Shown here piece after piece: positions 39,230 to 39,370 of a DNA stretch of 64,000 bases. Each line of letters begins with the position of its first letter. Within the stretch, counting starts at the first letter, position 1. This stretch comes from Spheniscus humboldti (lineage: Eukaryota): positions 1,148,536-1,212,535 of the forward strand of contig CM049899.1 in assembly GCA_027474245.1 (NCBI GenBank). Reading direction: 5' to 3'. The position numbers and the translations under genes are program-made. The notes beneath the pieces are model-generated. The model was not told the origin of the DNA and made no database searches. It worked only from the letters and a program-made list of their open reading frames with translations.

Positions 39230-39370
39230 CCCAAGTGTCTTACATATCCCTGATGTCCCTAGAACTTTAATCGGCTCATCTACTCAGCCATATTTGGCTT
39301 TGATGAAGCCCCGTGTGTTTCCCAATATCCCCCCGTGTCCCCAGTGCCCCAACATCCTCAACATCTGCAG
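39230..39370 (+). repeat. Decayed tandem duplicate of the exon 12 acceptor and first ~50 nt; includes an open 108-nt AG/GT-flanked cassette at 39263..39370
   Basis: The copy 'tccctag|aactttaatcggctcatctactcagccatatttggctttgatgaagcc' corresponds to the real 'tccccag|aactccaatcgtctcatctgctcagctgtgtttggctttgatgagggc' ([16 protein letters not shown] against [16 protein letters not shown]). Confidence 0.75.

Follow-up and report, generated by a model that had tools for sequence, protein, structure and literature searches.

The 108-nt open stretch in intron 11 of the MVP gene, which looks like a cassette exon by its frame and its flanks, is very probably a decayed unit of an old tandem duplication that spanned the boundary between intron 11 and exon 12. 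It would accordingly be a neutral intronic relic rather than an exon, acting at most as a decoy 3' splice site. The stretch lies in a window of 64,000 nucleotides of Spheniscus humboldti DNA (hereafter, the window is this whole stretch), and the first-pass annotation of the window had proposed it as a candidate cryptic cassette.

MVP occupies the + strand of the window from 21827 to about 41400 with 16 coding exons, which give an intact open reading frame of 854 codons once joined. The exons were located by tblastn with an approximate human MVP probe, and their borders were then set by frame and splice-site consistency. Around intron 11, we distinguish the following features (a slash within a sequence marks a splice or unit junction).

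38906-39044, + strand: MVP exon 11, 139 nt, ending CAC AAG/gt (tblastn map, splice and frame model)
39220-39306, + strand: upstream copy of a direct repeat, 43 nt of acceptor-proximal intron followed by 44 nt copying the start of exon 12
39261-39262, + strand: inherited acceptor-like AG, ...gtccctAG, in the context ttacatatccctgatgtccctAG/AAC, 5.0 bits on an approximate position-weight matrix
39263-39370, + strand: pseudo-exon, 108 nt, 36 codons, phase 0, stop-free, 45 nt exon-derived and 63 nt C-rich intron
39371-39417, + strand: spacer, 47 nt, GTGACCCCGACGTCCCCAAGTGTCTCATATGTCTCTGCTGTCCCCAG, composition A7 C18 G10 T12, with the donor-like CAG/GTGACC at its start
39375-39461, + strand: working downstream copy of this repeat, made up of the intron 11 end and 44 nt at the start of exon 12
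39418-39629, + strand: MVP exon 12, 212 nt, starting AAC TCC, with the donor CAG/GTCCCC

Intron 11 is a phase-0 intron with a + strand composition of C 152, T 96, G 69 and A 56. The product of exon 11 shares 93% amino-acid identity with other birds, and the product of exons 10-13 aligns with residues 480-712 of human MVP in the PDB (E = 5e-102), which places the junction of exons 11 and 12 at K593/N594 of the human protein. The real donors of exon 11 (AAG/GTCTCC, at 39045-39050) and exon 12 (CAG/GTCCCC, at 39630-39635) match the consensus least well of all donors in the gene, scoring about 0 bits where the others reach 3-11; the GTC at positions +1 to +3 of the exon 11 donor is kept in all neognath birds compared. 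The C-rich repeats 3' of these weak donors may be intronic splicing signals. The two exons also carry unusual residues. Exon 11 encodes M, I and E at positions occupied by V, V and D in the other birds, and the residues encoded at 39538-39567 in exon 12 differ from SVEPVDQRTRDA, which is read in nearly all MVPs from birds to invertebrates, with G, C and D at alignment positions that are at least 90% conserved. Despite these substitutions the MVP of the window is otherwise intact, and the odd residues may reflect lineage-specific relaxation or sequence error.

The pseudo-exon is bounded exactly as the first-pass annotation had described it. The AG, the 108 nt and the GT (at 39371-39372, in GTgacc directly 3' of the pseudo-exon), the open frame and phase 0 at both neighbouring junctions were all borne out by the coordinates and the translation, and a recount of the boundaries introduced no stop and left the phase intact. 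Because 108 is 36 x 3, inclusion would on paper give an in-frame MVP of 890 residues, and these properties are what favours a true alternative cassette, in which the 108 nt would be spliced between exons 11 and 12 to add 36 residues to the shoulder domain of MVP. The donor was also rightly called consensus-like; CAG/GTGACC reaches 6.8 bits on the approximate position-weight matrix. The view that inclusion would insert a partial duplicate of the following vault segment holds for 15 of the 36 codons: exon 12 is copied only in the first 45 nt of the pseudo-exon, and the remaining 63 nt are C-rich intron.

The copied part belongs to a direct repeat, family D4, which is far beyond chance. Positions 39220-39306 align with 39375-39461 over 87 nt without gaps at 83% identity and a spacing of 155 nt (blastn, E = 9e-21), confirming the suggestion that the intron holds a duplicate of the exon 12 start with a retained AG acceptor. 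Further copies of the exon-like part were not found in the window by blastn, and only the C-rich tail alone matched elsewhere, weakly. A dispersed repeat was rejected as the source, the exon-like part being present at two places only in the window. An Rfam scan of both strands of 38000-41000 found no match and thus no sign of a structured RNA.

The open frame of the pseudo-exon means little in its surroundings. Of all 36-codon windows, 38% are free of stops in the MVP introns as a whole and 54% in introns 10-13, and for 21 codons, the length of the non-duplicated part, the share is 72%. The C-rich sequence simply has few stop codons, which accounts for the open frame. The splice sites were scored with approximate position-weight matrices, valid for ranking within the MVP gene only. 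On these approximate matrices the acceptor of the pseudo-exon scores 5.0 bits, within the range of 0.5-11.2 for the real MVP acceptors, and its donor 6.8 bits, within the range of -0.1 to 11.2 for the real donors; these are respectable values that count against a relic, the donor lying well above the two neighbouring real donors. As those two real donors score about 0, however, such scores cannot decide whether a segment is an exon. The MVP introns contain 17 AG..GT pairs 50-250 nt apart in which both sites score at least as high as those of the pseudo-exon. With one third of such pairs in frame and about 40% open, around 2 frame-preserving open pairs are expected among them, and 1 was observed, which is the pseudo-exon. 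The combination of AG, GT and open frame is therefore about what chance would provide.

The geometry of the locus speaks strongly against a cassette, and the first-pass annotation had not mentioned how close the donor lies to exon 12. Inclusion of the pseudo-exon requires the removal of two introns, of which the upstream one would be an adequate 218 nt and the downstream one would be the C-rich spacer of 47 nt; the shortest real intron in the MVP gene is 73 nt. Human introns shorter than 66 nt are rare, with 22 conserved examples listed, and 12 of the 15 with splicing evidence are G-rich (PMC4463651). A few human introns of 43-56 nt are nevertheless known to be spliced (PMC4463651), so that 47 nt is a strong but not an absolute obstacle. 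The spacer has a single yUnAy motif, CTCAT, with its A at 39397, 26 nt from the donor-like GT and 21 nt from exon 12. A distance of less than about 50 nt between donor and branch point is taken as a sign of steric interference that blocks the joint splicing of two neighbouring exons (PMC5740500). On its downstream side, the putative cassette thus falls short both in intron length (47 nt) and in donor-to-branch-point distance (26 nt). The pyrimidine tract used by the genuine acceptor of exon 12 also lies in the spacer, which would serve as the branch-point and pyrimidine-tract region of that acceptor, not as a separate intron. Other ways of using the pseudo-exon also break the reading frame. 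Joining exon 11 to the pseudo-exon and then to exon 13 shifts the frame and leads to a stop after 71 codons, and a mutually exclusive exon was rejected, since putting the pseudo-exon in place of exon 12 leads out of frame and into a stop and only 45 of 212 nt are duplicated.

The protein level offers a secondary argument against the cassette. The structure model, of moderate confidence overall (mean pLDDT 65.7), predicts a helix at residues 107-123 of the segment, with a pLDDT of about 80 in this block, and the junction of exons 11 and 12 falls inside it, as would the insert. The 36 residues would repeat the latter half of the helix in degenerate form and continue with a proline-rich stretch of 21 residues in the middle of the shoulder domain, which would be unfavourable. 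The protein search used the hypothetical inclusion isoform and exons 10-13 as queries. The 36-residue insert was found in no protein among 5.8 billion clusters, in which bird MVP is sparse, the species of the window itself is absent and the best matches are 93% identical, which makes this a weak negative. A title search of the literature on chicken MVP splice variants found no title on avian MVP splicing.

Matches from the protein search led us to further bird loci, which cover one close relative and three more distant bird lineages. L001 and L002 are ENA metagenome contigs containing host DNA, and L003 and L004 are Logan contigs from a related galliform-like bird. L005, L006 and L007, JGI and ENA metagenome contigs that are 100% identical to one another and represent one species, are closest to the window. 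The full-length kiwi model came from a cluster look-up. A metagenome scan for more species with a bird-specific DNA pattern from exon 12 gave 0 matches. L005 carries an orthologous copy directly 5' of exon 12, with the junction ...GCAG/GTGACCCCGA as in the window and a spacer of 50 nt. The 108-nt length, the open frame and the donor-like GT are all kept there, which favours the cassette and counts against a relic. The acceptor of the orthologous copy, in turn, has decayed to AAG/GAC, and L005 also has a second, older copy that reads RLICWASFGLDEAPCVP up to a stop. Identities between the window and L005 are as follows.

Upstream intron: 79.8%
Pseudo-exon: 77.8%, the lowest value in the region
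Spacer: 89.4%
Exon 12: 90.6%
Start of intron 12: 89.3%

The 89% conservation of the spacer is expected for the signals of the real acceptor. The pseudo-exon differs from its L005 counterpart at 24 of 108 positions, which are spread as 8, 9 and 7 over the three codon positions; of the affected codons, 16 are altered nonsynonymously and 2 synonymously. Over the same comparison, exons 11 and 12 are about 91% identical, third positions account for 25 of their 32 differences, and synonymous codon changes (23) outnumber nonsynonymous ones (8). As judged from these substitutions, the pseudo-exon is under no coding constraint and drifts at the intronic, neutral rate. Such a pattern tells against a lineage-specific coding exon, which the first-pass annotation had allowed for. 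In the chicken-like loci (L001 and L003) there is one old copy, TTTGGCTTTGATAAA, and the GT is absent, with CCAGTGAC where the window has CAGGTGAC.

A larger version of the same repeat is found in the kiwi, Apteryx mantelli (L008, GCA_036417845.1, CM071246.1), whose annotated MVP gene spans 38.6 kb. Tandem Repeats Finder (TRF) identified an array in kiwi intron 11 at 31892-33299 of L008, with a period of 151, 9.0 copies and 78% matches, which ends 45 nt inside exon 12. The array contains eight pseudo-copies, ccccAG/AACTCCAACCGGGTGATCTGCTCGGCCGTGTTCGGCTTCGA..., whose acceptors lie at 32000-33102 of L008; each has a ccccAG/AAC acceptor that matches that of the real exon. With the real exon counted in, the kiwi presents the exon 12 acceptor and 15 codons nine times in nearly identical form, and the real exon begins at the last copy only. 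Each pseudo-copy has an in-frame TAA at codon 20, and the donor-like CAG/GTGACC is present in none. In the window, L005 and the kiwi, the copies all part from the exon sequence directly after FGFDE, where GCCCCGTGT follows; the unit junction FGFDE/APC is common to all three. Both kiwi RefSeq models of MVP join exon 11 straight to exon 12 (DDFHK/NSNRVIC). Several other large tandem arrays occur in introns 11 and 12 of the kiwi, their periods being 21-63, 120-490 and 10-29 nt.

Conservation in related birds, which had been suggested as a check on the open frame, gave a divided answer: the frame, the 108-nt length and the GT persist in L005, but the kiwi units have in-frame stops, and the chicken-like loci have the old copy without the GT. 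Neither the frame nor the splice sites thus bear a mark of purifying selection in L005, the kiwi or the chicken-like loci. Together with the 47-nt intron, the chance-level open frame, the neutral divergence and the lack of the insert in the kiwi RefSeq models and in all database proteins, these results led us to abandon the candidate cassette, to which we give very little credence.

The same comparisons bear on the possibility of a false duplication introduced by assembly of a repeat-rich, GC-rich region. Short C-rich repeats abound here and tandem copies are typical of misassembly, but the two copies in the window are mismatched at 17% of positions, and past 45 exonic nt all similarity ends. 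Three metagenome assemblies made independently from another bird (L005, L006 and L007) contain an orthologous copy in the same flanking sequence, and homologous copies exist in the chicken-like loci and the kiwi. Because of the copy divergence and the independent assemblies of other birds, we regard an artefact as practically excluded.

We therefore return to a relic of an ancient tandem repeat. The duplicated unit measures about 150-155 nt and comprises the last 110 nt or so of intron 11 together with 45 nt from the start of exon 12. The introns here are filled with C-rich microrepeats of 9-10 nt, and slippage or unequal exchange within such CCCCATGTCC-type repeats is the most likely origin of the unit. 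Since the unit junction is the same in the kiwi and in neognaths, the shared sequence suggests one ancestral duplication older than the palaeognath-neognath split, after which units would have been gained, lost and degraded separately in each lineage. The pseudo-copies now number eight in the kiwi, two in L005, one recognisable in the window and one old copy in the chicken-like loci. The AG acceptor probably arrived with the copied intron end, and the GT would be an accident of the unit junction, common to the closest relative only. The last copy would always provide the real acceptor, presumably because no other copy leads on to the last 167 nt of exon 12 and the donor of that exon. Splicing from exon 11 would normally skip the relic, and we infer that the relic is not used in mRNA. 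A tandem repeat of this kind agrees with the head-to-tail arrangement with a functional copy, the different copy numbers in other birds and the neutral rate of change of the non-functional copies.

The relic could still be selected occasionally as an alternative 3' splice site, with AG 39262 chosen over the real acceptor 155 nt downstream and the resulting frameshifted transcripts degraded; in birds with many copies, such decoys could damp or regulate the output of MVP. The context of the AG is acceptor-like, with yUnAy motifs 10, 21, 38 and 57 nt 5' of it and a score of 5.0 bits on the approximate matrix that lies within the range of real acceptors, and the eight kiwi pseudo-copies have ccccAG/AAC like the real exon. 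Use of the acceptor at 39263 with retention of the spacer would add 155 nt and bring a stop after 83 codons, which is placed right for nonsense-mediated decay, and any stray use of the AG is thus expected to yield frameshifted transcripts with a premature stop. However, the acceptor has decayed in L005, the pseudo-exon and the upstream intron are the least conserved parts of the region (78-80%), which argues against selection to keep a decoy, and birds have anywhere from 1 to 8 copies, a spread that a neutral repeat would be expected to show. On the sequence as it stands, we consider a working decoy unlikely. A bolder proposal is that the repeat has been kept since before the palaeognath-neognath split as a set of decoys, up to eight of them intact in the kiwi, tuning MVP via unproductive splicing, or else that in the lineage of the window the 47-nt intron is spliced and gives a bird-specific isoform with 36 additional residues in the shoulder domain; we would call this very unlikely.

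Boundary-spanning tandem repeats are recurrent in bird MVP and reach into exons 10 and 12, as indicated by copies of the exon 10 start in intron 9 of the window and ahead of exon 10 in the kiwi. In the window, partial copies lie at 29133-29195, 29220-29270, 36254-36291 and 38051-38121, an example being LMLGPVLVMLGPGEQVTVWGLVC at 29143-29211, and the real exon 10 starts at 38225. The kiwi has five tandem copies of the exon 10 start before exon 10 (L008, 26558-28093). Beyond exon 12 there is a second relic at 39690-39739, a 74%-identical copy of the 3' part of exon 12 (39567-39616), 67 nt after the real donor. It includes a 42-nt stretch at 39697-39738 between AG and GT, with the flanks cctccAG and GTctct, which, unlike the pseudo-exon, is well conserved, being identical to L005 at 39 of 42 positions; the L005 copy is 14 nt longer (56 nt), and hence the two birds do not have a common frame here. 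Intron 12 is as conserved as exon 12 over its first 160 nt (89%). Intron 10 has a G-rich tandem repeat of 58 nt at 38540-38705, with 2.4-2.9 copies and 75-85% identity.

Intron 9 measures 9.3 kb, compared with less than 1 kb in the galliform-like L003, owing to an endogenous retrovirus at 29272-35959 on the same strand as MVP. Its two LTR stretches of 300 nt (29272-29571 and 35660-35959) are 100% identical. Between them are a gag-like ORF of 705 aa (29948-32065) and an intact pol ORF of 1043 aa (32120-35251), which by its sequence appears to encode protease, RT, RNase H and integrase. The GC content drops from about 0.60 to about 0.50 across the element, which looks like a very young insertion into the array of exon 10 pseudo-copies.

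For annotation, the relic should not be called an exon, even though it passes the filters of open frame, phase and AG/GT flanks. Open frames and good-looking splice sites are common in C-rich avian introns, and it is intron length and substitution pattern that separate relics from exons. The nine near-identical acceptors of the kiwi offer a natural test case for how exon definition chooses one 3' splice site.

The locus can be compared with three known kinds of sequence. Intronic pseudoexons, or false exons, are intronic stretches with good matches to splice sites that the spliceosome ignores. The pseudo-exon of MVP resembles them in having an AG and a GT at exon-like spacing, with scores in the range of real sites and an intronic position. 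Unlike them, its acceptor half was inherited from exon 12 by duplication and did not arise by chance, and the real exon is no more than 47 nt away. Tandem exon duplications, which include unannotated exon copies in the neighbouring intron according to the work of Letunic, Copley and Bork (2002) as cited in PMC9013439, are similar in that an exon copy with its acceptor stands here in tandem in the adjacent intron, and relics of this general kind are already known (PMC9013439). As in some human pairs of mutually exclusive exons (PMC5740500), the distance between donor and branch point is less than 50 nt. The difference from tandem exon duplications is that only 45 of 212 exonic nt were copied, that 108 and 212 nt are not interchangeable and that there is no purifying selection. 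Intronic minisatellites share the head-to-tail units of about 150 nt and their lineage-specific number (9.0 in the kiwi and 2-3 in neognaths), but here the unit runs across the intron-exon boundary, and the final unit belongs to a functioning exon. Because the unit crosses this boundary, every unit brings along 15 codons and a duplicate of a working 3' splice site. The locus is most probably an ordinary relic, which works like a pseudoexon and originated like a tandem exon duplication.
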